From the sequence record OR670491: a DNA stretch of 64,000 nucleotides. One strand, written 5' to 3'. The position numbers were made by a program, and so were the translations under genes. Positions 1-24,956 of the stretch are shown piece by piece; within the stretch, counting starts at the first letter, position 1, and every line of letters starts with the position of its first letter. The notes below the pieces were generated by a model. That model did not search any database, was not told where the DNA came from, and was given only the letters and a program-made list of their open reading frames with translations. The DNA is from Escherichia phage vB_EcoM_JNE01.

Positions 1-15
1 ATAACTAATGAAGAG

Positions 16-750
16 GTGAATAATCGAATTTCAGAAAAAATGAAAAAACTAAATATCAATGAATATGAAATTGTAGAATATAACAGTACTAGGAGCATGG
101 TTGAATATACAGTTGATGATATTTCATATACAACTAGTTACGATAAGATTATGCATCCAACTTGGAAAGGTAATCCAAGATATACAAAAGAAAGAATAAT
201 AAAATTGTCGAAAAAATATTGCAAGGGTAAAAAATTTCAATTTAATAAAATAATTGGTAATGTTAAAGGAATTAATACTATCATTGAATTAGAACTTGAA
301 AATGGTATGTTTATATATCCAAAATTTATACAATTAAAAGGAGGTTCTGACTTTAATACATCCACTGATGGTAAGATTTTAACAGAAATAATTTATCCTT
401 TGTTCGACAATTATATCACACAAAAACGTTTTGAAAATTGTAGAAATCCTGAAACTGGATACTTGTTGCCATATGATTTGTATGTTCCAGAATTTAATTT
501 ATTATTAGAAAAAGATGGAGTGCAACATTACAATCCAACAGCATATTTTAATAAAACATATGAATCATATTTGAAATTGAGAGAGAGAGATGAATTTAAA
601 AACAAATATGCCATATCAAATGGTTATAATTTCATGCGAATAGCAGATTATGAAGATCATGAAAAAATATTGAAATCTTTCCTTAAACTCATTGAAGAGA
701 ATCCAGGAAAGCAAATCGTGCAGATCTATGGTGAAGTACAAATTATCTAA
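16..750 (+). CDS. hypothetical protein (frame open to window start; may be 5' partial)
   Basis: 244-aa ORF from GTG; no in-frame stop upstream to position 1; followed by terminator/promoter hairpin at 757-790. Confidence 0.5.
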   Translation: MNNRISEKMKKLNINEYEIVEYNSTRSMVEYTVDDISYTTSYDKIMHPTWKGNPRYTKERIIKLSKKYCKGKKFQFNKIIGNVKGINTIIELELENGMFIYPKFIQLKGGSDFNTSTDGKILTEIIYPLFDNYITQKRFENCRNPETGYLLPYDLYVPEFNLLLEKDGVQHYNPTAYFNKTYESYLKLRERDEFKNKYAISNGYNFMRIADYEDHEKILKSFLKLIEENPGKQIVQIYGEVQII

Positions 751-760
751 AACAAAAGGG

Positions 761-790
761 TTGACACTAGTCAGCCCTTTTTGCTATAAT
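761..790 (+). promoter_or_regulatory. sigma70-like promoter (TTGACA-18-TATAAT) with -35 inside an inverted repeat
   Basis: TTGACA 761-766, TATAAT 785-790; AGGGTTGAC/GTCAGCCCT dyad; same module recurs at 31033, 35061, 38336, 41086. Confidence 0.55.
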
Positions 791-818
791 CATTTCATCA
801 ACTCAAGAGGATAAAGAC

Positions 819-1592
819 ATGACCCGTACAGAGAAAGCAATCCAAATCGAAAAGAACTTCAACAGCATGATGGCAGCTTTGGAATGTTTACTTGATACCC
901 AAGCTAATTCAATCAATTCCCTGATTGTATCTGGTAAAGGTGGTGTTGGTAAAACTTACAACGTTGACCAGCGTTTACAGAAAGCTGATGATAACTTTGA
1001 AATCGACTACAAAAAGATCAGCGGTAAAGTAACCACTATGGGTTTGTACGAAGCACTGTATCGTTCACGTCATGCCGCTTCAGTACTGTTACTTGATGAC
1101 GTTGATATCTTCAGTGATGAAACTAACATTGACTTGCTCAAAGCAGTGTTGGACACGTCGGAGAAGCGGGTTGTATCTTATGCAACTTCTGGTAAGTACC
1201 TGGAGCAGCAGGGTATTCCTAAGCAGTTTGAATTCCGTGGGAAGGTAATCTTCCTGACGAACAAAAACCTGTCACAGATTGCTAAAGGTAAAAGCAGTTT
1301 AGCACCACACATTGATGCACTGATTACTCGTAGTATCTTTGTTGACCTACAACTGTTCACCAACGAAGAAGTCATGATTCACATTGAGAACATCATGAAC
1401 AAGACTAACATTCTTGAGAACAATGGTGTTAATAAAAATGGTTGTAAAGCAATCCTGAACTGGATGCTGAACAACGAAGAAAACCTGCGTTCACCTTCAC
1501 TGCGTATGCCGTGCCTGATTGCTGGTTTGTACAACAAATTCCCGTATGATTGGGAATCAATGGCAGAAAACATGTTCCTGGAAAAGAACTAA
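819..1592 (+). CDS. P-loop NTPase (Walker A GKGGVGKT, Walker B LLLDDVD)
   Basis: 257-aa ORF, SD AGAGGA before ATG; Walker A/B motifs read directly in the translation. Confidence 0.7.
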   Translation: MTRTEKAIQIEKNFNSMMAALECLLDTQANSINSLIVSGKGGVGKTYNVDQRLQKADDNFEIDYKKISGKVTTMGLYEALYRSRHAASVLLLDDVDIFSDETNIDLLKAVLDTSEKRVVSYATSGKYLEQQGIPKQFEFRGKVIFLTNKNLSQIAKGKSSLAPHIDALITRSIFVDLQLFTNEEVMIHIENIMNKTNILENNGVNKNGCKAILNWMLNNEENLRSPSLRMPCLIAGLYNKFPYDWESMAENMFLEKN

Positions 1593-1595
1593 TAC

Positions 1596-1624
1596 TTGAC
1601 AGTACTACCAATGTACAGTACAAT
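1596..1624 (+). promoter_or_regulatory. sigma70-like promoter (TTGACA-17-TACAAT) for the membrane-protein array
   Basis: TTGACA 1596-1601, TACAAT 1619-1624, directly after stop of the ATPase gene. Confidence 0.5.
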
Positions 1625-1651
1625 ACCTGTATTGAAAAGCGAGGAAACGAT

Positions 1652-1981
1652 ATGCAAGAATTTATAACACAAGATTGGGTACGAAGTTTGACATTCTTCT
1701 ATATGTTGGGGTTCGTATATTATCATGTACTGGTTGGTATACTATGGTACTTTAAGAAGCGAGCGTGTTTAACTCTGTATCCAGAATGGATGATTTTATT
1801 TTCTGTCGTACAAGGCGTTGGTGTGTTATTTGGGGCAATAACACATTGGGTGTATGTGACTGACCCTAGATTAATTTATATTGCACCTTACTTTGTATTT
1901 GGATTTGGTATCATATTTTTGTGCATGAGTGCAATATATGGTTTGGTAGTTTATCGTAGAAAAATTGTTGGCGATTTATAA
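1652..1981 (+). CDS. small multi-pass membrane protein (membrane family 1/8)
   Basis: start moved to ATG at 1652 with SD GAGGAAA; hydrophobic segments; WYFKKR motif. Confidence 0.6.
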   Translation: MQEFITQDWVRSLTFFYMLGFVYYHVLVGILWYFKKRACLTLYPEWMILFSVVQGVGVLFGAITHWVYVTDPRLIYIAPYFVFGFGIIFLCMSAIYGLVVYRRKIVGDL

Positions 1982-1993
1982 GGGGATACAAAG

Positions 1994-2344
1994 ATGGGTT
2001 CTGATTACATTGAGTTTATTTTGAATAGCGGCATTGTACAAACTATTTCTATGTGTATCTTTTATCTTTATATTTTTGTTTGTGCATTTTTCTTTATTGG
2101 ATGGTACTTTAAACGTCCTTACTACGAAGTATATGCATACAGTGAAGAACTAAGTATTGCTAATAATATCTTAGCGTACTGTAGTGTAGGAGCATTAATT
2201 ATTGCAGTTGCAAGTGATAAAGGCTTAAATGTTGCATTTGCATTCTCTTATGGTGTCTGTGCATTGCCAGCATTCATTTTCTTTGGTATTATATTAGTAC
2301 TGAAATACCTTAACAAACTACGTAACCACATTCCAGAGGCATAA
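1994..2344 (+). CDS. small multi-pass membrane protein (family 2/8)
   Basis: hydrophobic ORF, GWYFKRPY motif, basic C-tail. Confidence 0.6.
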   Translation: MGSDYIEFILNSGIVQTISMCIFYLYIFVCAFFFIGWYFKRPYYEVYAYSEELSIANNILAYCSVGALIIAVASDKGLNVAFAFSYGVCALPAFIFFGIILVLKYLNKLRNHIPEA

Positions 2345-2345
2345 T

Positions 2346-2684
2346 ATGGAGTACTTTCTGAGTTTATTACCAATGCACATTCTAATCGCTACAGGTTATT
2401 ATGTATTCTTTGCAGTATTCTTTTTCCTGATGTGGTTCTTCAAACGACCCATTTCAGTCGTGATTGACCGTAACTACTGGCCTCCTATGTTACACGTTTG
2501 GTACTGGTTTTCGTGCTTTATGTCTATTATTCACTACGCTTTGATTAGTACTGGTCAACGTTCAAATGGGGAAGGTATTTGTACTGTGTTTTTTATATTA
2601 GGAACAGCGGTATATATATTTCTTCTAGTAACACCACTGATTCAGAAGTTACGTTCTAAGATTCCTGACGTGAGAGGTCACTAA
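2346..2684 (+). CDS. small multi-pass membrane protein (family 3/8)
   Basis: hydrophobic ORF, MWFFKRP motif; 1-nt gap to previous gene. Confidence 0.6.
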   Translation: MEYFLSLLPMHILIATGYYVFFAVFFFLMWFFKRPISVVIDRNYWPPMLHVWYWFSCFMSIIHYALISTGQRSNGEGICTVFFILGTAVYIFLLVTPLIQKLRSKIPDVRGH

Positions 2685-2686
2685 CA

Positions 2687-2995
2687 ATGTTTGAATTTGT
2701 AATGTTTACAGTAATTTCATTTTACTTTTGTATTTGCTGGGTTGGATTTCTCTTTGCACTGAAATCTTTTATCTTCTTTGAGAAGCAAGCAAAAGAGTTT
2801 TGGTTCCCAATCGCAGTAGTGACAGTAACATCACTGATTTGGGTATGGAAATTGTCATATGGTACATATGATGACATTCAGGTAGCACAATTTCTTCTTG
2901 GCCCTTGTGTAGTTGTATTTGTAGTAAGTTCAATTCCACCATTGTGTCGTGCAGTGAAGTCGTTTCATATGAAACAAAAAGCTAAACGCAGATAA
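2687..2995 (+). CDS. small multi-pass membrane protein (family 4/8)
   Basis: hydrophobic ORF, FFEKQ motif shared with next gene, basic tail KQKAKRR. Confidence 0.6.
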   Translation: MFEFVMFTVISFYFCICWVGFLFALKSFIFFEKQAKEFWFPIAVVTVTSLIWVWKLSYGTYDDIQVAQFLLGPCVVVFVVSSIPPLCRAVKSFHMKQKAKRR

Positions 2996-3006
2996 AGGAT
3001 AATAAC

Positions 3007-3324
3007 ATGCAAATTGAATTGATTCTATTCATCATCTGTGCTGTGTACATGTTATCGTGTTGGGTTGGATACCTGTTCGCAATCCCTGTATTTGACTTTT
3101 TTGAGAAACAATGCAAGAATGGTTTTATATGGGCGTGGGGTGCAACATTCAACAGTGTAATATGGACAGTACTACTTATATTCCATCCTCCTGAAGATAT
3201 GTACGGTGTGAGGATAGTACTGGTTATGACGCTTATATTAGTTGGATTATCAGCCTGTGAAGCACTATACAAAGTATTCACTTCCGTTCGTTTGAAGTAC
3301 TTGAATAAGAGGAAAGATGTATGA
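3007..3324 (+). CDS. small multi-pass membrane protein (family 5/8)
   Basis: hydrophobic ORF, CWVGYLFA...FFEKQ motif. Confidence 0.6.
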   Translation: MQIELILFIICAVYMLSCWVGYLFAIPVFDFFEKQCKNGFIWAWGATFNSVIWTVLLIFHPPEDMYGVRIVLVMTLILVGLSACEALYKVFTSVRLKYLNKRKDV

Positions 3325-3698
3325 TTACATTTACATTAAATGCATTGACAGTAATTCTATGCTATAGTACACTAGTCTACATTGGTAAATTCTTTTGTGT
3401 AAGATTCTTTGAAGCACAATACGATGCAGCGGCTGAAGACGATATTGATAATGTTGCTATCAGTGCTATGTGTTATTGTTTTGGTTTATTCTTCACTGTA
3501 TGTGCATGGTTAACGTACTATTATGATTTTGGATACCTAGAGGGTGACAGATTCTTACTAGTGTTGTTATTGGTATTCGGTTCATTTTGTGTCGTGATAC
3601 ACTTTTTTATTCTTGTGTGTACTAGTGTAGTATATAAGTTAGTTCCGTTCTTTAAAGATTTGCACAGTAAAATCCGTGCTAAGAAGAGAGGTGAGTGA
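3321..3698 (+). CDS. small multi-pass membrane protein (family 6/8)
   Basis: hydrophobic ORF; ATGA start/stop overlap. Confidence 0.6.
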   Translation: MITFTLNALTVILCYSTLVYIGKFFCVRFFEAQYDAAAEDDIDNVAISAMCYCFGLFFTVCAWLTYYYDFGYLEGDRFLLVLLLVFGSFCVVIHFFILVCTSVVYKLVPFFKDLHSKIRAKKRGE

Positions 3699-4051
3699 TG
3701 TTATCATTTGCGGGTCAGATTATCGTCATGGGTATTACATTATTATTCACGGTGAATAGTATTATTTTACTCGGTAAGTACTTTAATATTCGTCCAATGA
3801 ATAAGTTGTACGATAAATTAAAAGAAGATAATCCATTCTATGTATTTTTATCTGTAGCAATTGGCATAGGTTTCGTTTTAGAAGTTATTGGTTTAATTGC
3901 ATCTGCACCAGTTGTGATTGTTTTTGGAATCTTTTCTGCTACATGTGGGTTATTATTATTTTCTTTAGGTTTAATACTCGACCTATCGATTAACATTGGT
4001 ATTAAACTTAAGAAGTTTCATGAAAAGCAACTTCAGAGGGACGTAAAATGA
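3695..4051 (+). CDS. small multi-pass membrane protein (family 7/8)
   Basis: hydrophobic ORF; ATGA overlap. Confidence 0.6.
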   Translation: MMLSFAGQIIVMGITLLFTVNSIILLGKYFNIRPMNKLYDKLKEDNPFYVFLSVAIGIGFVLEVIGLIASAPVVIVFGIFSATCGLLLFSLGLILDLSINIGIKLKKFHEKQLQRDVK

Positions 4052-4419
4052 CATACCGTGAGTACTTCCTAATTGTTCATATCTTATTTTTTACCGTATT
4101 TTCTGTTGTAGGGTTGATGTATTATTTTTGTATTCAACCAGTGTACAATTACTTCCAGAAGACTACTGACACAAAGGTTGTTGGTACAATTGCTGCAATC
4201 CTATTATATATGTTGAGTATCCTTCTTATAATTGGTGAAGTATTTTTTGATGGTATGCCAAATTCAGACGGTTTGCTTATTCATGAGTTTATAACTGGTT
4301 TATATTGTTTAGTTGGGTTTATTGCATTTGTGATTTTTACAGTGTACAGGATCTATAAATTTTTCATGTATCTTGGTGGACTACACGATTCTATTCGTCA
4401 GAAACGTATGGGGGAATAA
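4048..4419 (+). CDS. small multi-pass membrane protein (family 8/8)
   Basis: hydrophobic ORF; ATGA overlap; followed by terminator. Confidence 0.6.
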   Translation: MTYREYFLIVHILFFTVFSVVGLMYYFCIQPVYNYFQKTTDTKVVGTIAAILLYMLSILLIIGEVFFDGMPNSDGLLIHEFITGLYCLVGFIAFVIFTVYRIYKFFMYLGGLHDSIRQKRMGE

Positions 4420-4424
4420 AAAAA

Positions 4425-4460
4425 TACCCAGTACTGAAATATTGTACTGGGTATTTTAAT
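4425..4460 (+). terminator. rho-independent terminator
   Basis: ACCCAGTAC-loop-GTACTGGGT hairpin followed by T-run. Confidence 0.6.
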
Positions 4461-4465
4461 ATATT

Positions 4466-4819
4466 ATGAGATTCATTAAAGCGAGCTTGCAATCACAAAA
4501 GAAATGTCAAATTATAATTGAACACGATGGTTTGAAGATATCAGCATTTGATTTTGGAAGTACTAAACATTCTATTTGCTTTAATGATCCTGACAACGCA
4601 GTGTATTGTCTTATGATTAAAGTAAACTACTTACATAAACTTATAACAGAACCTGAATATTTTGTTCGTTTCAAAAACTTTAGTACAGAGAAACTACATG
4701 AGATATATAGAATTTCAATGATTGCATATACATTTTTGGGAATACCTGATGATGAACTTGATGTGACATTCCCTGGTGAAGCTAAAATACCTAAAGAATC
4801 ATTTTGGAAGGATTTATGA
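4466..4819 (+). CDS. hypothetical protein
   Basis: 117-aa ORF after terminator. Confidence 0.5.
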   Translation: MRFIKASLQSQKKCQIIIEHDGLKISAFDFGSTKHSICFNDPDNAVYCLMIKVNYLHKLITEPEYFVRFKNFSTEKLHEIYRISMIAYTFLGIPDDELDVTFPGEAKIPKESFWKDL

Positions 4820-5457
4820 AACACAGACTTAATAAGTTTTACACTGACTATTTCAAAGATGTAAATGCATTCTTTAAAAAATACAAGATGCATACTAAAA
4901 ATGCACAGAACAGACGAAACCCAGCATTTGCCAGACCAAGTAGAAATATTACTTCATGTACACCTACGTGCTCAACGAAAAAGATGTTAAGTGCCAAAGG
5001 TATAAAGATAGCTTATATTGAAGCATATAAAGATAATGCACGTTTGAATAGTACTGATGATATTAAATTCAGTTCTGTTAAAATGAAAATTGGTGATATT
5101 CAGTGTGAAATGGCTGTTGATTTGGAATACAATCTGGAAATCAGAATGTATGTAGCTCACGATAGTTCACGAAAAGTGGAATTAATGGGAATAACATCTT
5201 ATATTTGTAAAGATACAGATGGATTTGCATTGAAAACTTCAACGTTCAACGTTGATTCGGTAGATGATCTCGATGGTGCATTAAATCATCTGATGAGTTC
5301 TGAATGTACAGACGAACTAATGTTCCAGTACTCACTGTTGTATAAAGATATTGACCAGTACATTGAAATGTGCAAAGTACTACAACGTGTATATGATATG
5401 TACATGAAGACTGGAAAACTAACTGCATTTATTTTATATAACGCAGTAGAGGTATGA
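4816..5457 (+). CDS. FQ-S family protein (outlying member)
   Basis: ATG at 4816 with SD GGAAGGA; motif DELMFQYSLLYKD shared with the 48-64 kb array. Confidence 0.55.
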   Translation: MKHRLNKFYTDYFKDVNAFFKKYKMHTKNAQNRRNPAFARPSRNITSCTPTCSTKKMLSAKGIKIAYIEAYKDNARLNSTDDIKFSSVKMKIGDIQCEMAVDLEYNLEIRMYVAHDSSRKVELMGITSYICKDTDGFALKTSTFNVDSVDDLDGALNHLMSSECTDELMFQYSLLYKDIDQYIEMCKVLQRVYDMYMKTGKLTAFILYNAVEV

Positions 5458-5458
5458 T

Positions 5459-5668
5459 ATGGAAAAGTTTTATAGTTCACTACTTCTATCTACTGAACTT
5501 GTATCATTTATGGTGTGCAAGACTAAGAAAGATTATTACATTAATAATCCAAATCCTTTAAATGATATAGAGCTATCACTTAAATTTGTAAATTGTACTG
5601 AAAATATATTAAAGTACAACAATAAAGTTTATTTTAATGTATTGAAATTGATATTTGTATATAACTAA
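5459..5668 (+). CDS. YY-family small protein (outlying member)
   Basis: C-terminus VYFNVLKLIFVY matches the 17-21 kb family. Confidence 0.5.
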   Translation: MEKFYSSLLLSTELVSFMVCKTKKDYYINNPNPLNDIELSLKFVNCTENILKYNNKVYFNVLKLIFVYN

Positions 5669-5670
5669 AA

Positions 5671-5698
5671 AGCCAGTACAAAGTACTGGCTTTATTTT
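5671..5698. terminator. bidirectional terminator between convergent genes
   Basis: AGCCAGTAC-AA-AGTACTGGCT hairpin flanked by A/T runs. Confidence 0.6.
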
Positions 5699-6902
5699 AT
5701 ATACCACGACTGGGTATTTGATATAATTGGAATTTAGTGTAGTAATCAGAAACTGTTGTCCCGGCTGCTTGTGGGATATAGCCACTCAAATACACATCCC
5801 CTTGATTATCCATATACACTGTTGTACATTCACTTGAACAGAATAACTCGGTGTTAGATACTTTAGGAGCATCAACTGGTGTTACAAATGTAGTACTTGA
5901 TGTTGTATTACCGCGACCGAGCTTACCATACGTGTTTATACCACACATATAAAGTGAATCGGCAGTTTTAACCGTAAGCCCACCATATGTTAATGAATTT
6001 GATTTCATTTCCATATCATCTGATATTGGTAGAGTGGAGATAGTGGATAATACTGTCCAAGAATTAGCGGATGAACCATTACCCAAGTTACCATCGGACT
6101 GAATCCCACTTGCACGAACTGTATATGTATTATTCGTGTTGTGTTTATATACAACCCATGATGCACTCCCACCGAGTTCATAATGTATAACAGTATTGTT
6201 GGCGAATGCACCCATTTGTGTCCATACTCTAATGTTAGTTGCATTATTACTTATACCAAGCGAACCCCATGTGTTTTGACCAGTGACCCAAAGTGTTTTA
6301 TCAATTTTCTGCACAATCACTGCACTTGAACCTGTTTTAACACTATCAACATTCGTATTAATTGACGTAAAAGTTGATAATCTAGTGGTTGTGTTATTAC
6401 CAAAATATCCCTGTGTATTCGTCCCCATTCCATATAGCGTACCATTTTCAAGTAAAACAAAAATACCCTCACCTACAAGTTGAATGTCCTTAATTTGGGA
6501 CAATTGTGTAGCATTGAATACTGATGTAAAATATGAAGTACAATCAGTATAAGTACTGGCAGTACTTAAACCTGCACCAATAGCTTTACCAACCCCACTG
6601 TAATAAAATTTATTATCTTCAGTTTGGATTAAATTAAAAGTACCTTGGGCTGTTCTGAAACGTTTTACATTTTGGTATATTAAAGTCCATTCTTTTACTT
6701 TCGCATTATGTACACCATTCCCGAATCCATAGTTTTGTGAAGTAGTTCCACCTATACCCATTAAGTCTCCATTTTTATATAATAGTAAGAGTGCTGTTGC
6801 TGGAATTACTGACGCACTATAACCATTGTACATAAAGATTTCTTTCACTTCAGGAACTTTCATTTTATTAGCGTATTTAACCATTCTTGCAAAAGGTAAC
6901 AT
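5697..6902 (-). CDS. RCC1-like beta-propeller repeat protein (paralog 1/9)
   Basis: 401 aa; N-terminus MLPFARMVKYAN; Gly/Ser/Thr-rich with G-x-N-x-x-G-[QK]-LG repeats (e.g. INTYGKLGRGN). Confidence 0.7.
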   Translation of the reverse strand: MLPFARMVKYANKMKVPEVKEIFMYNGYSASVIPATALLLLYKNGDLMGIGGTTSQNYGFGNGVHNAKVKEWTLIYQNVKRFRTAQGTFNLIQTEDNKFYYSGVGKAIGAGLSTASTYTDCTSYFTSVFNATQLSQIKDIQLVGEGIFVLLENGTLYGMGTNTQGYFGNNTTTRLSTFTSINTNVDSVKTGSSAVIVQKIDKTLWVTGQNTWGSLGISNNATNIRVWTQMGAFANNTVIHYELGGSASWVVYKHNTNNTYTVRASGIQSDGNLGNGSSANSWTVLSTISTLPISDDMEMKSNSLTYGGLTVKTADSLYMCGINTYGKLGRGNTTSSTTFVTPVDAPKVSNTELFCSSECTTVYMDNQGDVYLSGYIPQAAGTTVSDYYTKFQLYQIPSRGI

Positions 6903-6907
6903 AAAAT

Positions 6908-6930
6908 CCTCCTTTATTCATTATACTATA
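6908..6930 (-). promoter_or_regulatory. conserved upstream motif TATAGTATAATGAATAAAGGAGG (candidate promoter -10 plus SD)
   Basis: near-identical copy upstream of every RCC1-like gene. Confidence 0.4.
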
Positions 6931-6934
6931 TTTA

Positions 6935-6968
6935 GCCAAAAAGGAAAAGCCAGTACTTGAGTACTGGC
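6935..6968 (-). terminator. rho-independent terminator
   Basis: GCCAGTACTCAAGTACTGGC hairpin plus T-run on minus strand. Confidence 0.6.
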
Positions 6969-6979
6969 ATTATAAAGAA

Positions 6980-8155
6980 TCAAATTGTAGGAAGTAGGAA
7001 TTCTTTCATAACAGATGAACTACTCGCACTGACATTATCTGGTGATTTCCCTGCGTAGTATAATTTATTATTAATGAACATATATAATGTTGCATCATTC
7101 CCTGCAACAAGAGAAACCTCTTTATTAAAAACAACACCACTAGGTAAAATTGCTTCAACGAATGAACCTGATTCGCGTGTGGTATTATTTGCTAATTGAC
7201 CATTGTTATTATAACCAGTACTATAAATTTTACCTGAACTATAATACACAAGCCCACGTGTACTAGTGTTTTCTATACGAAGGAATTCACTATCATCTGG
7301 AACTGAAGTTGATAAAGTTGCATTTAACTTATAAGCGGATGTTGTATTATTATTACCCAACTGACCATAACCTTGATATCCTAGTGTATACATAGGACAT
7401 GATTCTGGTGTACCTTTAGTTATAACACCAAAATAATTCGAACTACAAAAAGCGTCTATAACTTCTGTAACAGGTGTACCCTTATATTGAACCCAAGGGA
7501 ATACATATGATTGTTGTTTGCCATTCCCTAAAGTACCAGAGCTTGTTGTTCCGGTACGCCATATTGTATCATCAAGTTTAATAATCCAGTTAGCAGATGT
7601 TATAGATGAACAGAATTTTTTAACATTATCAATTAAGTATGTAAATTTATTATAATATGATGCAGTGTTTAGCCCAAACTTAGCACCAGTATTATCACCT
7701 AACAAATATAAACTATTATCAGTACCTAAAATGACAGCATAATCATAACCTACATATATCTCTTTTATTTTTGAAATACCAAATTGTGTAAAATAGCTTG
7801 TACATTCAGTGAATGTTGTTACTGTATTTGTTGTATTATTACCTAACCATTTATCAAAACCACTAAAAAAGAATCTATCATCATTTGTGCGTATTAGACA
7901 AAAAGCGTTCCCTGTACTACACCAGAAATCTTTAACATTGCTATATATTTTTGTCCATTCCTGTACCTGTGTCGTATTACCTAGACCAAAAATACCACCA
8001 TTTTGAAGACCGATGGCCCATACTGAACCATTTTTATCAAGTAGCATTGTAGTTGTAAATGAGTATCCAGATGATGGTGTAACCAATTTAACAAAATTTG
8101 GGATATATGGCACGACCTTATTTCCGTACTTAGCCATCCTTGCAAAAGGTAACAT
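6980..8155 (-). CDS. RCC1-like beta-propeller repeat protein (paralog 2/9)
   Basis: 391 aa; N-terminus MLPFARMAKYGN; motifs YQGYGQLGNNN, YNNNGQLANN. Confidence 0.7.
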   Translation of the reverse strand: MLPFARMAKYGNKVVPYIPNFVKLVTPSSGYSFTTTMLLDKNGSVWAIGLQNGGIFGLGNTTQVQEWTKIYSNVKDFWCSTGNAFCLIRTNDDRFFFSGFDKWLGNNTTNTVTTFTECTSYFTQFGISKIKEIYVGYDYAVILGTDNSLYLLGDNTGAKFGLNTASYYNKFTYLIDNVKKFCSSITSANWIIKLDDTIWRTGTTSSGTLGNGKQQSYVFPWVQYKGTPVTEVIDAFCSSNYFGVITKGTPESCPMYTLGYQGYGQLGNNNTTSAYKLNATLSTSVPDDSEFLRIENTSTRGLVYYSSGKIYSTGYNNNGQLANNTTRESGSFVEAILPSGVVFNKEVSLVAGNDATLYMFINNKLYYAGKSPDNVSASSSSVMKEFLLPTI

Positions 8156-8190
8156 AATTTCTCTCCTTTATTCATTATAATGTATTTACC

Positions 8191-8223
8191 CAAAAAAAGA
8201 AATGCCAGTACTGGAGTACTGGC
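8191..8223 (-). terminator. rho-independent terminator
   Basis: GCCAGTACTCCAGTACTGGC hairpin plus T-run. Confidence 0.6.
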
Positions 8224-8229
8224 ATTATA

Positions 8230-18315: not shown

Positions 18316-18990
18316 ATGAAACTCAATAATTACAGTAAACAATACCTAAAGCATTTTAAGTACCTCAAAAGCATTAAGGCTGAATCTATCACCAGCAGCT
18401 ACGTTTACAGCCCTAATGTACTAAAACAATTAAAGTACAAGAAAGAAAAAGTATCAAAGAACCTCAAAAAGTTTCTTAAGCACAAAGACGCAAAGATTCA
18501 GTACTTGAACATTAAAAACGATCATCCAGTACTAAGCCTCAATACAAGTCTAAAGAATCTGGATAACTCTTCATTTATGCTTGAGTTCAATATAAATGAA
18601 AATACTCCAGCGGTTTTTACAATTGCGTATAATAAAGCACAAATCTTTTTAGGTGCAAAAACCGCACTTAAACTCAGTAAAGCACAATTCTGTTTAGGTG
18701 ACCAGTACTACGTAGGTAGTGTACATATTGAACTCGAAAAAGATATGTACTTCGGTAGTACCCACGATAATCCAGAACATAAAGATACTATTGACTTCTT
18801 CAGGAATCTCCCTAAAGAGTATTCAGAAGATGAAATGTTCCAGTGGAGTACTATTATTAAAGACCCACATCTTTGCTACGAAGTGTATAAGAAAGTACAA
18901 GGGATTAAACAAATGATTAAAGAAAATAAAAAAATGTACCAACTCTTGCAGTTCTTAACCGGAGAAAATCTAATTGTTCAAAGACCATAA
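18316..18990 (+). CDS. hypothetical protein with FQ-S motif (EDEMFQWSTIIKD)
   Basis: 224-aa ORF inserted in the YY array. Confidence 0.55.
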   Translation: MKLNNYSKQYLKHFKYLKSIKAESITSSYVYSPNVLKQLKYKKEKVSKNLKKFLKHKDAKIQYLNIKNDHPVLSLNTSLKNLDNSSFMLEFNINENTPAVFTIAYNKAQIFLGAKTALKLSKAQFCLGDQYYVGSVHIELEKDMYFGSTHDNPEHKDTIDFFRNLPKEYSEDEMFQWSTIIKDPHLCYEVYKKVQGIKQMIKENKKMYQLLQFLTGENLIVQRP

Positions 18991-19168
18991 AGAGTACTAC
19001 AGAAATCAACTCCCAAAGGAATGGCAAATAACATTAGAAACTAACCTAGCACAGATATATACCCAGAAGTTTCTTGCTATGACATGGGAGCACTGCATTG
19101 AGTCAGTACTGAATTCTTCAAATGAATCACAATATCTCAATACTCTTTTACTTGTATATAAATTCTAA
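18974..19168 (+). CDS. YY-family small protein (TTG start)
   Basis: TTG directly after in-frame TAA, SD GGAGAA 8 nt upstream; HKEYY ... QYLNTLLLVYKF. Confidence 0.45.
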   Translation: MFKDHKEYYRNQLPKEWQITLETNLAQIYTQKFLAMTWEHCIESVLNSSNESQYLNTLLLVYKF

Positions 19169-19181
19169 AAAGGAATAACAA

Positions 19182-19388
19182 ATGCAATTCCATGAACATA
19201 TGGAGTACTACAGAAAACAACTACCAGAACCTTTATCGATGATAATCGGTTCCAGAAGTTTAATAAGTAATCCCAATTTTCATATGCGTAGTCACTATAA
19301 ATGTACTGCTTCAATTTGTAATGGAACTGCTCACAATGAACCGCACCAGCATCTATACCAAATCCTTAAACTAATATATCAGTACTAA
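19182..19388 (+). CDS. YY-family small protein
   Basis: HMEYY ... LYQILKLIYQY. Confidence 0.55.
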   Translation: MQFHEHMEYYRKQLPEPLSMIIGSRSLISNPNFHMRSHYKCTASICNGTAHNEPHQHLYQILKLIYQY

Positions 19389-19391
19389 ATT

Positions 19392-19583
19392 ATGCACGAA
19401 TATAAAGAGTACTACAAAGATAAAATCCCAAAGTTTCTACAATACCAAATACCAGATGCTGCACTAGGAATAAATGATGTGCACACCTGTACAAGATTCT
19501 ATCAATGCACTGAAAGTTTTCTGGTAGATGATTATGACCAATGCAAGGTGTACTATGTTATTTCACTAATATATAGGTACTAA
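19392..19583 (+). CDS. YY-family small protein
   Basis: MHEYKEYY ... VYYVISLIYRY. Confidence 0.55.
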   Translation: MHEYKEYYKDKIPKFLQYQIPDAALGINDVHTCTRFYQCTESFLVDDYDQCKVYYVISLIYRY

Positions 19584-19586
19584 ATC

Positions 19587-19766
19587 ATGCACAACGATTT
19601 CTATATACAAAAACTTATCGACGCTGGCCTGGAAAGCTTCCCGATAAATCCTGTACAAACAAAAGGATTGCACTGGTACTTCATCCCCTGTACTAAAGCA
19701 TGTATAAACCCCAGCAATTACAAGGATCTATACCACAATATATTAATACTCGCATTGAGGTACTAA
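19587..19766 (+). CDS. YY-family small protein (59 aa, absent from ORF track)
   Basis: hand-translated MHNDFYIQK...LYHNILILALRY. Confidence 0.45.
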   Translation: MHNDFYIQKLIDAGLESFPINPVQTKGLHWYFIPCTKACINPSNYKDLYHNILILALRY

Positions 19767-19769
19767 ATT

Positions 19770-19952
19770 ATGCAAGAACACTTGGAGTACTACAGAAGCC
19801 ATCTCCCAAAGAAGGCACAAAGAAACTTCGACCAACAATATATAAACCAAAAGAATCAGTTCTATAATGCATTCTATTCGTCTATGAAAACTATTGCTAT
19901 ACAAGGCAAAGACCCGTACTATAGCATCCTGAACATCATCTTCAAGTACTAA
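19770..19952 (+). CDS. YY-family small protein
   Basis: MQEHLEYY ... YYSILNIIFKY. Confidence 0.55.
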   Translation: MQEHLEYYRSHLPKKAQRNFDQQYINQKNQFYNAFYSSMKTIAIQGKDPYYSILNIIFKY

Positions 19953-19955
19953 AGC

Positions 19956-20141
19956 ATGTACAGAGACTTCTATATAAGTAAACTTAATCCTGTACTACAA
20001 ACTCGTATTCCTCCAGCGAAATTTATCCTCAAAACAAAAGCACAAAGGTATGAGTTCAAAAAGTGTACAAAAGAAATACTCAGTACTAAAAGTAATAAGA
20101 ACATATACTATCAAGTACTCGTCCTTATATTCAAGTACTAA
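19956..20141 (+). CDS. YY-family small protein
   Basis: MYRDFY ... YYQVLVLIFKY. Confidence 0.55.
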   Translation: MYRDFYISKLNPVLQTRIPPAKFILKTKAQRYEFKKCTKEILSTKSNKNIYYQVLVLIFKY

Positions 20142-20161
20142 AGTACTAAAGGAATAAACAT

Positions 20162-20356
20162 ATGCAACACCAGCACAAATTGTACTACACGCAATTTCTT
20201 AATCAGCAACTACAACAATTTATACCTAATGAACCATTACCATATGATCATCCCCTGGGTGCACGCGTTTTCAAAAGAACTATTAATGAACTATTGAGTA
20301 CTACCGACGACGATTCCCTGTACTACTGCTTAATTAAACTTATATATAGGCACTAA
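20162..20356 (+). CDS. YY-family small protein
   Basis: KLYY ... YYCLIKLIYRH; SD AAGGA. Confidence 0.55.
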   Translation: MQHQHKLYYTQFLNQQLQQFIPNEPLPYDHPLGARVFKRTINELLSTTDDDSLYYCLIKLIYRH

Positions 20357-20357
20357 T

Positions 20358-20552
20358 ATGCAACTCCTGCACAGAGAATACTACACACAATTCCTTAAAG
20401 AGAACTACAGAGATTCAGTCCCCGTAACTCCTTTTGACCCAAATAACCCAAGTTCAATCTTCCTCTTTAACGACGCAACACGTACTGCACTCTGTACTAC
20501 CAATAAACATTGGCACTACGCATTTGTACTTATACTTATATACAGACACTAA
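20358..20552 (+). CDS. YY-family small protein
   Basis: REYY ... HYAFVLILIYRH. Confidence 0.55.
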   Translation: MQLLHREYYTQFLKENYRDSVPVTPFDPNNPSSIFLFNDATRTALCTTNKHWHYAFVLILIYRH

Positions 20553-20561
20553 GGCACTAAC

Positions 20562-20747
20562 ATGAATGAGCACAGAGAGTACTACATAAAGAGACTTCAC
20601 CCCGACCTACGAGATACTATACCATTCGTTCCACATAATATACATGAACCCGTAGTGCAGTACTACTTTAATATAACAGTACAAGCCGCATTAAGTGAAT
20701 ATAGACTTGAGTACTTCACTGTACTAAAACTTATATATAAGTACTAA
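20562..20747 (+). CDS. YY-family small protein
   Basis: HREYY ... YFTVLKLIYKY. Confidence 0.55.
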   Translation: MNEHREYYIKRLHPDLRDTIPFVPHNIHEPVVQYYFNITVQAALSEYRLEYFTVLKLIYKY

Positions 20748-20812
20748 CCCCTTGACATATACTCCAAGAATGATATACTACTTTCTATATAGAAACAATA
20801 CAGAGATAACAT

Positions 20813-21022
20813 ATGCACGAACATAAAGATTTCTATGTAAGCCAACTCCCCGTAATAGACCAATTCTGGTTAGCTGATGCAGCACCGTGTAATACAGATA
20901 CTAAGTACGGACAATTGTGCTTTGTTGAATCTATAAAGAAAGTACTACAACAAGATAAAACTAAGTACCGTAAAGAAAAAGACTTGTACTTTAATATAGT
21001 AGAACTTACCTTTATGTTCTAG
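20813..21022 (+). CDS. YY-family small protein
   Basis: HKDFY ... LYFNIVELTFMF. Confidence 0.5.
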   Translation: MHEHKDFYVSQLPVIDQFWLADAAPCNTDTKYGQLCFVESIKKVLQQDKTKYRKEKDLYFNIVELTFMF

Positions 21023-21080
21023 TATAGAGAATAGTACAGGATACTAAGGTCTAGATGTGTTCCTAGGGAAGCATTATAAC

Positions 21081-21190
21081 AGGCTTTAACATCTCGTAAA
21101 GATGTTAAAATTCAGCCTGCTCGACGTCTGAATTGTTAAAATTCAGCCTGGACAAATGCGATCACTAGGATTCTATCTAGGCTGAATCCC
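21081..21190. repeat. direct and inverted copies of GTTAAAATTCAGCCTG
   Basis: two direct copies (about 21104 and 21134) and inverted partial copies, in non-coding DNA. Confidence 0.5.
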
Positions 21191-21928
21191 GTAATCACAA
21201 GTACGCATATGTAATCATATATAAACATTTCCGTGAGAAGTTTTGAGTACTGTATAGTATTAAGAATCACCGTAGGAGCACAGAATGATTAAGAATGCAC
21301 GGGAATGATTCAGAATGATTCAGTACTGATATGTCACTAAGTAGGCAGAGGAAGTCTGCCGTACTTTTTAGTTTCCAAGCTCCTTTTCCATTTTTCAAAT
21401 TACATCAAATGCAATCAAAAGTAATCACGCAATGATTAGTACTGAATTATTACTTTCACCTTAATTTCAAATACCCGTTGACCCTTCGGGGTAAAATTCC
21501 ATTACCCCTTGAGGCTCCAGCAAAAAGTTGGTTAGTACTCCATCCTAAATCTCGATCCTAAAAATTTTGGAGTACCTATGAAATAAAAGTTGGATCTTCG
21601 AAAGTTGAAATTTACGTTGGGATGATTAGGATTTGTGAACTATAATGTAGTTCAAGTTGGAGTACAGAGTGAGAACAATCTAGAGTACTGAAAGATGAAA
21701 TAACATCTTGACAATACAATTCAGTACTGTATAATGTTGTACATAGGGTGAGGGAACGGCGGCAACTGTTCCTTAATCTCAGTATCATGTCGTGAGACAT
21801 TACGCAAGTTATATCCTCCTGTGCATAGTGCTGGTGGTTATCTCTTGAACCTCATTTTTTCTCGTGAACTAAACAGTACTGATATTAACAGAATGGTAGC
21901 AGTACTGATATTAATCTAATGCATTATG

Positions 21929-21948
21929 CCACCAGCTTGTGCTGGTGG
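21929..21948. repeat. perfect hairpin CCACCAGC-TTGT-GCTGGTGG (Chi octamer in both orientations)
   Basis: read directly; GCTGGTGG is the E. coli Chi sequence. Confidence 0.6.
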
Positions 21949-22162
21949 ATTCCCTCTAACAGTATTCAGTACTACATGATGGTCTTCATCCTCCTGGGGT
22001 AACATAGTGAAGGTTATGATGGCAGTACTGAATACTCCAAACTCAAGATGGATTAAGGGTGTAGTACTGACGGATTTTGGGTGTAGTTACCCTGGATGGA
22101 TTTTGGACGTAGATATGTCTAGCCCTCCAGAAGTCTGGAAGTAAAGATGGCTATCCATCTAG

Positions 22163-22238
22163 ACGGCTAAACGGCTAGATTTCTGGATGGCTGGACGTTT
22201 GGACGGCTAAACGGCTAAACGGCTAAACGGCTAAACGT
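22163..22238. repeat. tandem 8-mer ACGGCTAA (iteron-like) with GGATGG/GGACG satellites
   Basis: four perfect tandem copies at 22203-22234 plus two copies at 22163-22178. Confidence 0.6.
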
Positions 22239-22878
22239 CTGGATGTATGGATGGCTAAATCAAAATTTTATTTTGTTTTTTCCAATAGTTCCCCTACCGC
22301 GTGGGGATAGTTTCCCCGCAGTATCTGGTGTTAGATTTTTCTGAATCTGGAATCATTATCTTATAAACTGGGGGCAATGTCAACGGCCTGGACGGATATT
22401 TTTAAAAATTTTTTCAGTACTGAATTTTGGGCGTAACTATGCACCCGGTGGGCTTGAGTCTTTCTCGACTTGATGGAACTATTATACAGTACTGAAAAAA
22501 TAAAGCAATACCCTGGAAGCAAAAAAGTTTTAATTAATTTGCTTGCTATCCTGGGCCGGACTATGGTACTATATTTCAGTACTGAGAAAGTGCGTTTACC
22601 TGCTAGGGTGCGGGAGTGTATCCTTTTTTTATATCTTGAATTTTGGACGGATCTTCCCACCCCCTGGGGTATCCGCTTTCTCGCGTCTATGTAGTAATTA
22701 TACGCTTTTTCAGGATCAAGTCAATACCTAAAAACAAAATAATTGAAAATAATTTAACGCGTTTAAACGGCCCGTAACGCCCTGGAATGATTAGAATGGT
22801 GCAAATGTATAGCTTAGGTGTATTAATGCGTTAGAATGCGTCTGAGGCCGTTTTATGGGGTGTAGTAGTGATTTGGTT

Positions 22879-23045
22879 GATTCAGTACTGAATAATAGTA
22901 CTCCTATATAGAAAGATAGTTCCCCTGGATTGATTCAGTACTGAATGATAGTACTGAATAATAGTACTCCTATATAGAAAGATAGTTCCCCTGGATTGAT
23001 TCAGTACTGAATGATAGTACTGAATAATAGTTCCCCTATATAGAA
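22879..23045. repeat. direct repeat of a roughly 66-bp unit, about 2.7 copies
   Basis: unit GATTCAGTACTGAATGATAGTACTGAATAATAGTACTCCTATATAGAAAGATAGTTCCCCTGGATT; abuts first early promoter. Confidence 0.6.
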
Positions 23046-23077
23046 AGAAAACTATTTTAAAAGTATTTGTAGAAAGT

Positions 23078-23138
23078 ACTTGCACAGTACTGATAAAAGC
23101 GTATAATGTTTTACATCGAGAGCGGGAACTCTTCCCGC
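23078..23138 (+). promoter_or_regulatory. early-type promoter (TTGCAC-16-TATAAT, extended -10 TG) plus 5' stem-loop GCGGGAA-CTC-TTCCCGC
   Basis: consensus AGTACTTGCA...AGTACTG-TATAAT-GTTTTACATC then GC hairpin then SD. Confidence 0.55.
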
Positions 23139-23162
23139 TACACTTTAAGAGAGATTAATACG

Positions 23163-23525
23163 ATGGCGACTCAAATCACTAAAATCATTGCTAACCTGGT
23201 TAACTTCCGCGACGATATGAAAGATCTTCCGGCGGCAACGGTTAAAACTCACATTGACGCATACCGCGAACTGATTAAAATGCTGCCGCTTAAGCGTGAA
23301 CAATACGCCGCCACCGTGATGCTTGATGCGATGATCCATAAGATGATCGCCAGTGATTTAACGATGGCTTATCAGTATATGGGTGAATTGTTCGCGGTGT
23401 ATAGTAAACCAGTACCAGGAATGGAAAGTACAGAAGTATTACACGGTTTAAATTTAAAACAAGATGCATGGGATAATATGCCTCGTTTCCTGGTATGGGC
23501 TGACAGTGGCAAAATTTACGAATAA
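23163..23525 (+). CDS. hypothetical protein
   Basis: start moved to ATG at 23163 (MATQITKII) downstream of promoter hairpin; SD AAGAGAG. Confidence 0.6.
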   Translation: MATQITKIIANLVNFRDDMKDLPAATVKTHIDAYRELIKMLPLKREQYAATVMLDAMIHKMIASDLTMAYQYMGELFAVYSKPVPGMESTEVLHGLNLKQDAWDNMPRFLVWADSGKIYE

Positions 23526-23538
23526 GTTAAAAATTAGT

Positions 23539-23595
23539 TTGACAGTACTGAATAAAAGCGTATAATGTTTTACATCAGGTGGGGAATAGTTCCCC
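23539..23595 (+). promoter_or_regulatory. early-type promoter (TTGACA-16-TATAAT) plus 5' stem-loop GGGGAA-TAG-TTCCCC
   Basis: read directly. Confidence 0.55.
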
Positions 23596-23617
23596 ACTAT
23601 ATAAGAGGATTAAAAAA

Positions 23618-23857
23618 ATGGCTAAATCAAAAATGTTCTTAGGTCACAAAAATAAAACTCATTGGAATGTAAGCCTTTGGATTAATAACGATGAGGGATT
23701 GTATCGGTTGGCCCAGGACTTTATTAACGATAGCACTAATCGCAATGATGCGGCCCGTCATATGATGTTATTTTTAGAACAGACTGGACAAGATAAAACA
23801 CCGGACGGATTCAAATATAGCACTACTGCGATCCGTGCGGCAATGGTAGGAATGTAA
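23618..23857 (+). CDS. hypothetical small protein (paralog of 25659..25898)
   Basis: MAKSKMFLGHKNKTHWNVSLWINN...PDGFKYSTTAIRAAMVGM; SD AAGAGGA. Confidence 0.6.
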   Translation: MAKSKMFLGHKNKTHWNVSLWINNDEGLYRLAQDFINDSTNRNDAARHMMLFLEQTGQDKTPDGFKYSTTAIRAAMVGM

Positions 23858-23869
23858 TAGAATATATTT

Positions 23870-23906
23870 AAAGTACTATCATTTTTTTGCGATAGTACTT
23901 TATAAT
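23870..23906 (+). promoter_or_regulatory. dyad AAAGTACTATC-N10-GATAGTACTTT abutting TATAAT (operator-like)
   Basis: same dyad plus promoter upstream of the paralog at 36326-36364. Confidence 0.4.
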
Positions 23907-23943
23907 AGTGTTTTATTCATACACCAACGATAAGGGCAACAGC

Positions 23944-24210: not shown

Positions 24211-24217
24211 AAAGTAC

Positions 24218-24276
24218 TTGCAAACTATGTTTAATGGCGTATAATGTTTTACATCGAGAGCGGGAACTCTTCCCGC
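24218..24276 (+). promoter_or_regulatory. early-type promoter (TTGCAA-16-TATAAT) plus 5' stem-loop GCGGGAA-CTC-TTCCCGC
   Basis: read directly. Confidence 0.55.
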
Positions 24277-24297
24277 CTATAACCTGGAGTAATAAAA

Positions 24298-24528: not shown

Positions 24529-24558
24529 GCAGTTTACAAATCTTTACAATTGCCGGTA

Positions 24559-24895: not shown

Positions 24896-24956
24896 TTTGA
24901 CAAATGTTTTTAAAAGCGTATAATACTTACATCAACTACTGAATGAGGGTTACAAA

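Follow-up and report, generated by a model that had tools for sequence, protein, structure and literature searches.

In phages T7 and T3, the left genome end and concatemer junction, the early promoters A1–A3, and hairpin intermediates in concatemer processing were reportedly described by Dunn and Studier in 1983 and by Fujisawa and colleagues. In the T7 model, staggered nicks and strand displacement duplicate the terminal repeat. The Bacillus phage SPO1 is said, from work by Stewart and colleagues in 1998, to have a 13-kb terminal redundancy with a host-takeover module, for which neither Chi clustering nor a comparable non-coding leader of 2 kb is known to have been described. In phage T5, the untranslated Repeat Region 3 comprises 1.2 kb of nested repeats and palindromes, is more conserved than open reading frames (ORFs), and overruns the repeat boundary by 270 bp (bioRxiv 10.1101/866236); it has been proposed as an injection stop signal, iss (Davison 2020, bioRxiv 10.1101/866236). 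In P1 and its relatives, as well as in the lambdoid phage LLS, Chi sites are concentrated at genome ends or terminal repeats, and were proposed to drive RecBCD/RecA recombination of the repeats (PMC12315714; bioRxiv 10.1101/2021.07.08.451572). Here, we analyzed a gene-free region of about 2 kb within a 64,000-nucleotide stretch of Escherichia phage vB_EcoM_JNE01 (sequence record OR670491), the whole of which is hereafter called the window. Judged by homology, this region very probably spans the point where a direct terminal repeat (DTR) of ∼21 kb starts in an Asteriusvirus-type jumbo phage, and also takes in the repeat's non-coding leader.

The cutting of 350-kb chromosomes, their protection during entry, and the onset of their expression are little understood in this phage group. 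Read coverage indicated a terminal redundancy of ∼20 kb in G17 (PMC6563267), PhageTerm gave a DTR of 20,668 bp in Sharanji (PMC11895373), and in fEgEco12 a DTR of 20,993 bp by PhageTerm was accompanied by restriction digests that confirmed the linear arrangement and the end fragments (PMC13070987). The end is already known from this mapping in close relatives, and hence the region belongs to a kind of element already on record. Apparently undescribed until now are the anatomy of the leader, a rule of a hairpin at the first base of the repeat (+1) and an inverted CTA at the cut in two genera, and oriented Chi sites confined to the repeat. Published genome papers report the ∼20-kb terminal repeats, but term searches of them found neither promoters nor non-coding or intergenic DNA mentioned, and our literature search returned no paper linking Chi with jumbo-phage terminal repeats.

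Results

A 2.06-kb query from the region matched 41 phage records at 88–90% identity, which represent ∼350-kb jumbo phages of E. coli and Salmonella in the PBECO4/121Q/G17 group (genus Asteriusvirus); by this similarity, the stretch is Asteriusvirus-like jumbo coliphage DNA. Several related records were 20–35 kb longer than the rest and contained the query twice. In the G17 record, positions 1–20668 recur at 350150–370817, the right end of the record, so that the same sequence stands at both ends, with recognizable boundaries conserved at window positions 21340 and 42555. On the left, seven DTR-bearing GenBank records begin or end at one same base, equivalent to 21340: the records of E9.1, ELP-22, CRJP21, fEgEco12, vB_Ec-M-J, and BF17 start with AGTAGGCAGAGGAAGTCTGCC, and the reverse complement of the G17 record opens with AGTAGGCAGAGGAAGTCTGCC at its first base. 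On the right, G17 position 1, fEgEco12 position 20,993, and vB_Ec-M-J position 21,525 (the DTR is annotated as 1..21525 in that record) share the common end ...GGGTAACCT, which corresponds to 42555. An initial annotation of the region had listed a packaging site among its candidate roles, in agreement with the physical genome end (the left DTR boundary) mapping by homology to 21340, an end determined experimentally in relatives. The Klebsiella phage fENko-Kae01 belongs to another genus and shares ∼29% average nucleotide identity with fEgEco12 (PMC13070987). It has a terminal repeat of 19,736 bp by PhageTerm and the same layout with collinear modules, a shorter leader (0.8–1.3 kb), and a right boundary with GCCT before the cut and TAGCC after it.

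The gene-free span runs from 21023 to 23162, and the cut divides it into a variable junction outside the repeat (21023–21339, ∼317 bp) and a non-coding leader, the outermost stretch of the repeat (21340–23162, 1.82 kb). The initial annotation had given the span as 21040–23100; its gene-free character was upheld, and the limits were corrected. The start of the first gene had been placed wrongly at 23106, where the ORF opens inside the promoter sequence TATAATG. From 23163 on, variable sites among relatives are distributed over codon positions 1/2/3 as 14/22/55, and since third-codon-position variation begins there, the ATG at this position is the true start. All 11 relatives inspected keep a gap of ∼2 kb at the same place, with no credible genes in it.

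Around the cut, we compared 17 sequences covering window positions 21000–23200 (alignment A2). The terminal hairpin (Table 1) is nearly invariant among them, and fENko-Kae01 has an unrelated perfect hairpin, TATCTTCT-ctgtata-AGAAGATA, likewise at +1. On the outer side, (ATTCAGTACT)GATAT(G/C)(C/T)CACTA is kept up to the cut in all Asteriusvirus sequences, and the fENko-Kae01 flank reads TTCAGTACT-N9-CCGCTA; the flank ends in CCACTA here and in CCGCTA there, and TTCAGTACT precedes in both. On the opposite strand, reading towards the repeat, the outer flank of the right boundary ends in GAGCTA (window), TCGCTA (fEgEco12), or GGCTA (fENko-Kae01), so that at both boundaries and in both genera the cut comes after an inverted CTA. 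This inverted motif and its exact position suggest that a single nuclease acts in mirror orientation at the two boundaries, as duplication of a terminal repeat by staggered nicks and strand displacement would require. Phased TAATCA/TGATT repeats flank the cut, both within the repeat, where vB_Ec-M-J has one extra 10-bp unit of (C/T)AATCA, and to the left, at 21200–21320, and these are candidate recognition sites for the packaging nuclease (terminase small subunit). Further to the left, the junction repeats noted in the initial annotation were recovered: TGTTAAAATTCAGCCTG has direct copies at 21103–21119 and 21134–21150 (both 100%) and inverted partners that yield a hairpin at 21141–21187 (z = −3.1), and GAATGATT(C/A)AG forms a period-10 array of 4.3 copies at 21281–21323. 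The terminal hairpin was also considered as an intrinsic terminator, and was rejected as such, the T-run being broken (TTTGT) in most relatives.

The right boundary sits in a 233-bp intergenic gap (42411–42643), with a conserved AGGGATTGGACTATG...ATGCGT.GGGGG block just within the repeat and the TTGACT...TAAAAT promoter of the first unique gene just beyond it. In phage UE-S1 (ON568341.1, 115573–120222), the conserved cut-site sequence and the leader are internal, at ∼117.9 kb, and the published terminal repeat is 8.3 kb; this internal position agrees with the remark of the fEgEco12 authors that the UE-S1 repeat may be mis-assigned (PMC13070987).

The DTR contains 11 Chi octamers on the plus strand and 2 on the minus strand, and the 42.8 kb of the window outside it contain none. 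The plus-strand number expected from Markov models was 0.16–0.40 (Poisson P about 1e-12), and the comparison of inside with outside gave 6e-7 in a Fisher test. As in the Chi clusters of P1 and LLS, GCTGGTGG is over-represented, concentrated in the terminal repeat, and strand-biased (11:2). The G17 repeat has nine same-sense Chi sites and the partner in the palindrome described below, mostly at matching distances from the boundary, and none in 10.6 kb of flanking DNA, while fENko-Kae01 has three in the last 2.2 kb of its repeat and none in the 1.8 kb beyond. Given that a top-strand Chi acts on RecBCD that enters from the right (PMC12315714), the plus-strand array faces the right genome end, the nearest site being 1.36 kb in. 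A Chi-containing hairpin had already been pointed out in the initial annotation, and CCACCAGCTTGTGCTGGTGG at 21929–21948 is indeed a perfect palindrome (DNA ΔG −9.8, z = −5.1) with Chi on both strands, exact in 16 of the 18 loci covering its position, including fENko-Kae01 (484–503). Read by the same orientation rule, its bottom-strand Chi is the one correctly oriented site for RecBCD entering from the left end, from which it lies 590 bp away. The four loop nucleotides of the palindrome (21937–21940; A2 columns 1091–1094) read TTGT in some relatives and the complement ACAA in others, a flip that suggests recurrent inversion via hairpin or cruciform intermediates. The palindrome is annotated as an intrinsic terminator in G17; we rejected this, as no T-run follows it on either strand.

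The repeat carries ∼60 small genes behind stereotyped, predicted host-type (sigma70) promoters, and these are the likely earliest genes. Between 21340 and 42555, we recognized 17 plus-strand TATAATGTT promoters with a TTGACA/TTGCAN −35 element, which belong to a cassette of AAAGTACTTGCAn or TTGACA (−35), a 16–17-bp spacer, TATAATGTTTTACAT, a 5′-terminal G/C stem-loop of the transcript, a ribosome-binding site (RBS), and an ATG. The stem-loops are constant in position and vary in sequence. The first of the 17 cassettes is the TTGACA-16-TATAAT promoter at 21708–21735, which matches 12 of 12 consensus positions; as stated in the initial annotation, no ORF lies downstream, and it is the sole cassette of this kind, the other 16 leading genes. 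Given five conserved sigma70-type promoters in the leader and the first early-gene promoter directly after it, the regulatory hub that the initial annotation had suggested is plausible. The palindrome CAGTACTG occurs 12 times in the region (5.6/kb), compared to 1.5/kb in the rest of the repeat and 0.4/kb outside; in the cassettes, it lies within or beside the −35 element or the spacer, and it is a candidate operator for a regulator of early transcription. The two rightward and three leftward host-type promoters, the dense CAGTACTG copies, and the short-repeat arrays would be the start and control sites of the earliest transcription, and at least one product of the leader promoters would be non-coding. 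No leftward promoters were recognized in the repeat beyond the three in the leader, and CAGTACTGTATAAT was rejected as a LexA box, the second half-site being missing (judged by eye).

The palindromic hexamer AGTACT occurs 301 times in the window, compared to ∼22 expected from base composition or ∼120 from a third-order Markov model, and is densest at 17000–42000. It is over-represented in both coding (3.9/kb) and intergenic DNA (9.5/kb), is often paired 8–11 bp apart between genes, and is also found in promoter −35/spacer regions and terminator stems. Possible causes of this excess are binding or modification at the hexamer and effects of mutation or codon use.

Downstream of the 21708 promoter, the consensus fold of 21742–21860 has 33 pairs, 4 of them with compensatory changes, and the 5′ stem-loop has the same position and a different sequence in the window and in relatives. 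A structured small RNA is plausible from this fold, but the single-sequence fold was no better than shuffled sequences (z −0.88) and covariation is sparse, so we kept it as a candidate only. The same promoters would fit an alternative in which the region is solely a small-RNA and regulatory hub. In that case, the five promoters would give rise to several short non-coding RNAs acting on host or phage genes, the conservation would be due to these RNAs, and the genome end would be incidental. While the promoters are conserved, of consensus quality, and without ORFs on both strands, and the predicted 21708 transcript shows conserved hairpins bearing CCUCC (anti-Shine-Dalgarno-like) motifs and, in relatives, a terminator-like end, RNA genes do not account for the end falling exactly at a hairpin and a conserved flank in two genera. 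Moreover, no Rfam family matched (Rfam 15; no hit at gathering score in the window and chance-level hits only, at E<1, in 20900–23300), and the terminator-like element at 22605–22630 is not conserved in fENko-Kae01. We regard this alternative as possible, though somewhat unlikely. A tRNA/tmRNA scan of the window found none.

The leader is also rich in short tandem repeats. The ACGGCTAA array reported in the initial annotation was confirmed as 4.4 perfect copies at 22203–22237, within a run of ∼twelve 8-bp units at 22161–22256; its label as iteron-like was dropped, the units being contiguous 8-mers rather than helically phased iterons. Among relatives, the copy number of this array differs in multiples of 8 bp, and fENko-Kae01 has another repeat family (GAGAATGGTTCTC-like) in its place, a swap that would be expected for a binding-site array co-evolving with a phage-specific protein. 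The 8-bp array, TCAGTACTGA, and the TAATCA repeats may be protein-binding elements. The 66-bp direct repeat does lie just before the first early promoter, as annotated initially, yet the 2.7 copies given at 22879–23045 are now 2.5 copies at 22884–23048 with 97% matches; relatives have ∼1.5 copies or fewer, and 88% of the alignment columns are gapped. The 2–4 match places per record could have pointed to another leader copy elsewhere; this was rejected, as the two DTR copies and the repeated early cassette account for them.

Short tandem repeats beside an A/T tract and a strong promoter with a predicted untranslated transcript are features shared with known origins: oriF/oriG of T4 and the primary origin of T7 are transcription-primed, and the lambda origin is iteron-type. 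A replication origin, another candidate of the initial annotation, could be an extra role of the region, with the 8-bp array binding an initiator next to A/T unwinding, or with the 21708 transcript acting as an R-loop primer. Around twelve contiguous 8-bp units adjoin a site matching the integration host factor (IHF) consensus and the A/T tract (22261–22285), and the strong promoter without a downstream ORF is conserved. However, that IHF match is the only one and is close to chance (0.17 per kb), and iteron-type origins differ in having phased iterons of 17–22 bp with DnaA boxes and/or an adjacent initiator gene. In the region, no exact DnaA box, TT(A/T)TNCACA, was found, and at relaxed stringency two one-mismatch matches in 2.1 kb fell below the window-wide rate; no initiator gene adjoins, and the array sequence is not conserved in fENko-Kae01. 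Base composition gives a sharp change in the sign of the GC skew at 21.0–21.5 kb with plus-strand genes on both sides, but the skew is also positive at 1–5.5 kb, where genes are again on the plus strand, so coding-strand effects are possible. Overall, we consider an additional origin function unlikely.

The skew pattern itself is as follows. In the plus-strand block at 17.9–21.0 kb, GC skew is negative (−0.05 to −0.33) and AT skew strongly positive, and GC skew is positive in the plus-strand genes on the right-hand side of the repeat boundary. The switch in sign coincides with that boundary, and a change of coding strand does not account for it; elsewhere in the window, skew follows the coding strand.

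The leader differs sharply in conservation from the DNA left of the cut, which is indel-rich, with a mean pairwise identity of 0.66 and 48% of columns gapped (11 relatives). Within the leader, mean pairwise identity is 0.88–0.94 in most blocks, with 22–28% of columns variable. This equals the conservation of the first gene (mean identity 0.90; 46% of third positions variable), even though the leader lacks synonymous sites at which changes could accumulate. Two parts of the leader depart from this pattern: just after the 21708 promoter, it is the window that diverges from the other sequences, and the 66-bp repeat has a copy number specific to the window. In fENko-Kae01, the modules follow in the order of terminal hairpin, AGTACTCCATCCTAAATC...GGAGTACC block, CAGTACTGATAT repeats, and Chi palindrome (484–503), and then CCTACCGCG...GCAGTATC block, two leftward promoters, and first early cassette; the core of the near-invariant AGTACTCCATCCTAAATCTCGATCCTAAAAATTTTGGAGTACC block occurs twice. 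This conservation contradicts a reading as junk and argues that the region is functional.

A large untranslated region of repeats and palindromes at a terminal-repeat boundary, conserved across the genus, is also a feature of the proposed T5 injection stop signal. The anatomy mirrors T5 Repeat Region 3 in straddling the inner repeat boundary (270 bp outside in T5, ∼317 bp here) and, as there, in being conserved with adjacent genes reading away, which invites an alternative in which the 21-kb repeat is a first-step-transfer module whose right end leads the way into the cell; DNA uptake would pause once the leader reaches the envelope, and the leftward promoters would help import the rest. The Chi orientation, suited to protecting the right end, and the placement in the leader of the only leftward promoters recognized in the DTR, pointing at DNA that would not yet have entered, are consistent with such a pause. 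The rightward promoters 280–400 bp from the left end, however, would fit a T7-like entry with the left end first equally well, and the paired DnaA boxes proposed as a T5 hallmark are absent, as is any sequence similarity to T5; no homologues of A1/A2 turned up, though no search aimed at A1/A2 was made. We consider a T5-like pause improbable. That the region is decayed DNA, made of remnants of early promoter cassettes and slippage-prone repeats without function, is hardly credible, since, even if several pieces are copies of the early promoter cassette and the copy numbers of the 66-bp repeat and the 8-bp array vary between relatives, the leader is as conserved as the neighboring gene and far more than the DNA just outside the repeat, and neither its length nor the order of its modules changes within the genus or in a second genus.

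Table 1. Coordinates of features of the genome end, leader, and repeat in the window (cut positions are written as the two bases on either side).
Feature	Position	Strand	Remarks
Tandem RCC1-like beta-propeller paralogues (ten, 358–447 aa)	5697–16965	minus	PF25390/PF00415; phrog_4219, E down to 1e-104
Junction segment, unique DNA before the right-hand DTR copy	21023–21339		TGTTAAAATTCAGCCTG repeats, TAATCA motifs, GAATGATT(C/A)AG array
Outer flank TCAGTACTGATATGTCACTA, CTA right before the cut	21320–21339	+	Conserved
Left DTR boundary, physical left end of the packaged genome	cut 21339/21340		By homology to mapped relatives
Terminal hairpin AGTAGGCAGA-ggaag-TCTGCC(g)TACT	21339–21366		At DTR base +1, first 26 bases; DNA ΔG −8.0, z = −3.7
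10-bp-phased (C/T)AATCA repeats, then inverted TGATTA	21403–21439		TRF period 10
Near-invariant block including AGTACTCCATCCTAAATCTCGATCCTAAAAATTTTGGAGTACC	21505–21625		Almost every column identical in 17 sequences
Sigma70-like promoter TTGGGA-18-TATAAT	21617–21646	+	10/12; both hexamers conserved
Consensus sigma70 promoter TTGACA-16-TATAAT, then GTTGTACAT	21708–21735	+	12/12; core invariant in 17 sequences; early-cassette type
Candidate non-coding transcript, ∼100–120 nt	21742–21860	+	Predicted; 5′ stem-loop, invariant CUGUCGUGAGACAG hairpin, CCUCC hairpin, U-run
Chi, plus strand	21830, 21941, 28228, 32434, 32944, 33894, 35142, 37496, 39393, 40970, 41194	+	Exact octamer
Chi, opposite strand	21929, 28166	-	Exact octamer
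Palindromic Chi CCACCAGC-TTGT-GCTGGTGG	21929–21948		590 bp from the left end
Contiguous 8-bp units (GGATGGCT / GGACGGCT / AAACGGCT ...)	22047–22260		Followed by IHF-like site 22258–22270 and A/T tract 22261–22285
Sigma70-like promoter TTGACA-17-GATAAT	22355–22383	-	11/12; conserved in Asteriusvirus and fENko-Kae01
Early-type promoter TTGCTT-16-TATAAT, CAGTACTG in spacer	22481–22508	-	Read from sequence; inverted copy of DTR early promoters; invariant core
Sigma70-like promoter TTGACT-16-TATAAT	22697–22724	-	11/12; −10 and downstream TACTACATAGACGCGAGAAAGCGG conserved in Asteriusvirus and fENko-Kae01
66-bp tandem repeat, three AGTACT per unit	22884–23048		Upstream of the first early promoter
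First early cassette: TTGCAC-16-TATAAT (23080–23107), GTTTTACAT, 5′ stem-loop, RBS, ATG 23163	23080–23162	+	First DTR gene
Early-cassette −10 elements (partial list)	23102, 23561, 24240, 24801, 26715, 30366, 31198, 33331, 34666, 35202, 38481, 39826, 40161, 40802, 41671	+	Window 23080–41700
Right DTR boundary, ...GGGGTAACCT before and TAGC... after the cut	cut 42555/42556		Found outside the region; sets the repeat as 21340–42555 (21,216 bp)

The absence of a convincing ORF, already stated in the initial annotation, held for the whole region, in which no ORF is conserved. The longest, of 99 aa (22361–22660, minus strand), was rejected as a hidden gene, as it had no Pfam or PHROG match and carried frameshifts or stops in 5 of 17 relatives. 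The E9.1 and ELP-22 annotations include several short hypothetical-protein coding sequences within the leader (positions 193–1427), this ORF among them, and the frameshifts in relatives make it probable that these genes were called in error. In the most conserved block of the leader, 21569–21586 is an invariant GGAG-N5-ATG-AAA-TAA, a start-Lys-stop mini-ORF with a Shine-Dalgarno-like sequence, which may be coincidental because the ATG is missing in fENko-Kae01.

Flanking genes are small ORFs assigned to PHROG families of unknown function. To the right, a long series of small genes lies on the plus strand. The block to the left had been described initially as structural-like, which was wrong: 17.9–21.0 kb holds ∼15 plus-strand ORFs of 59–69 aa and one of 224 aa, and the RCC1-like paralogues occupy 5.7–17.0 kb. 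The short spacers between the ten paralogues carry AGTACT pairs.

Discussion

In our analysis, the genome end was placed at single-base resolution in the window by homology to relatives with mapped ends. Several points weigh against identifying the region as the DTR junction and its leader. The terminus was placed by homology and the window holds the repeat as one collapsed copy, and some deposited records may share their start base because of a common convention, not because each was mapped independently. The CTA core is only 3–5 bp, and no longer similarity joins the two boundaries: a search for a longer common motif returned only CTA followed by AG at the cut, the other shared k-mers being the ubiquitous AGTACTGA and GAATGAT. 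Promoter-like sites in the region were not above chance by count (20 found, 17.5 expected), and it is the quality and conservation of single sites, not their number, that stand out. The fold of the candidate transcript, on a par with shuffled sequences, counts in the same direction.

If the region is the DTR junction and leader, the following sequence of events could be proposed. In a replicating concatemer, the packaging nuclease would cut both repeat boundaries at the inverted CTA core, and the cut at the left boundary would fall exactly at the foot of the hairpin-forming inverted repeat. Opposite-strand nicks 21.2 kb apart, together with strand-displacement synthesis, would then give a second copy of the repeat, in the manner of the T7 model. 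Once the DNA is injected, the palindromic Chi on the left and the 9–11 co-oriented Chi sites facing the right end would switch RecBCD from degradation to RecA loading. This Chi action would protect the ends and drive recombination between the two repeat copies, yielding circles or concatemers. The leader could even be the cis control center of staged delivery in Rak2/121Q-type phages, in which the Chi-armored repeat enters right-end first as a T5-like first-step module, entry pauses, the leftward promoters and arrays license the remaining ∼330 kb, and hairpin-guided, symmetric nicking at CTA later regenerates the 21-kb repeat; we put this scheme forward as a speculative and rather improbable one.

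Testable claims arising from the DTR junction and leader include the hairpin at +1 and the inverted CTA in two genera, the repeat as a Chi island with one palindromic Chi facing the left end, the divergent host-type promoters and genus-specific repeat arrays, and a layout that mirrors the T5 region thought to stop injection. Following them up would show whether the solutions of T5, T7, and P1 to end formation and protection were reused at jumbo-phage scale.

Compared to SPO1, which reportedly also combines a long terminal repeat with many small early genes, each group of them standing after a strong host-sigma promoter and followed by terminators, the present phage infects a different host and shows no homology. 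The likeness to T7 and T3 extends to fixed ends, a DTR, 7–8-bp repeat arrays beside the boundary, an inverted repeat at the cut, and strong host-polymerase promoters that point inward within the first few hundred base pairs, and duplication of the repeat by staggered cuts is a natural model for both. In contrast to the 160–230 bp of T7 and T3, the repeat here is 21 kb long and bears genes, the leader spans 1.8 kb with divergent promoters, and no phage RNA polymerase promoters were recognized. With P1 and LLS, the locus shares exact 5′-GCTGGTGG-3′ sites far over expectation, located in or near terminal repeats and oriented towards the DNA end, as well as a proposed role in terminal-repeat recombination via RecBCD/RecA and survival of linear DNA. 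Unlike those phages, this is a virulent jumbo phage with fixed ends rather than headful or cos packaging, its Chi sites are restricted to the 21-kb repeat in the DNA examined, and one perfect palindrome provides both orientations.

By its layout, the closest published analogue is the untranslated Repeat Region 3 of T5, of which the present arrangement is a mirror image. Both are gene-free stretches of 1–2 kb full of direct and inverted repeats and palindromes, at and beyond one boundary of a long DTR (10–21 kb) that holds the earliest genes, and both are conserved at least as well as neighboring ORFs across the genus, with adjacent genes reading away. They differ in that there is no sequence similarity and the eight paired DnaA boxes of T5 are absent here, whereas the Chi palindrome and AGTACT motifs are specific to the present group, and in that the physical end itself lies in the region here, at the outer end of the left copy.

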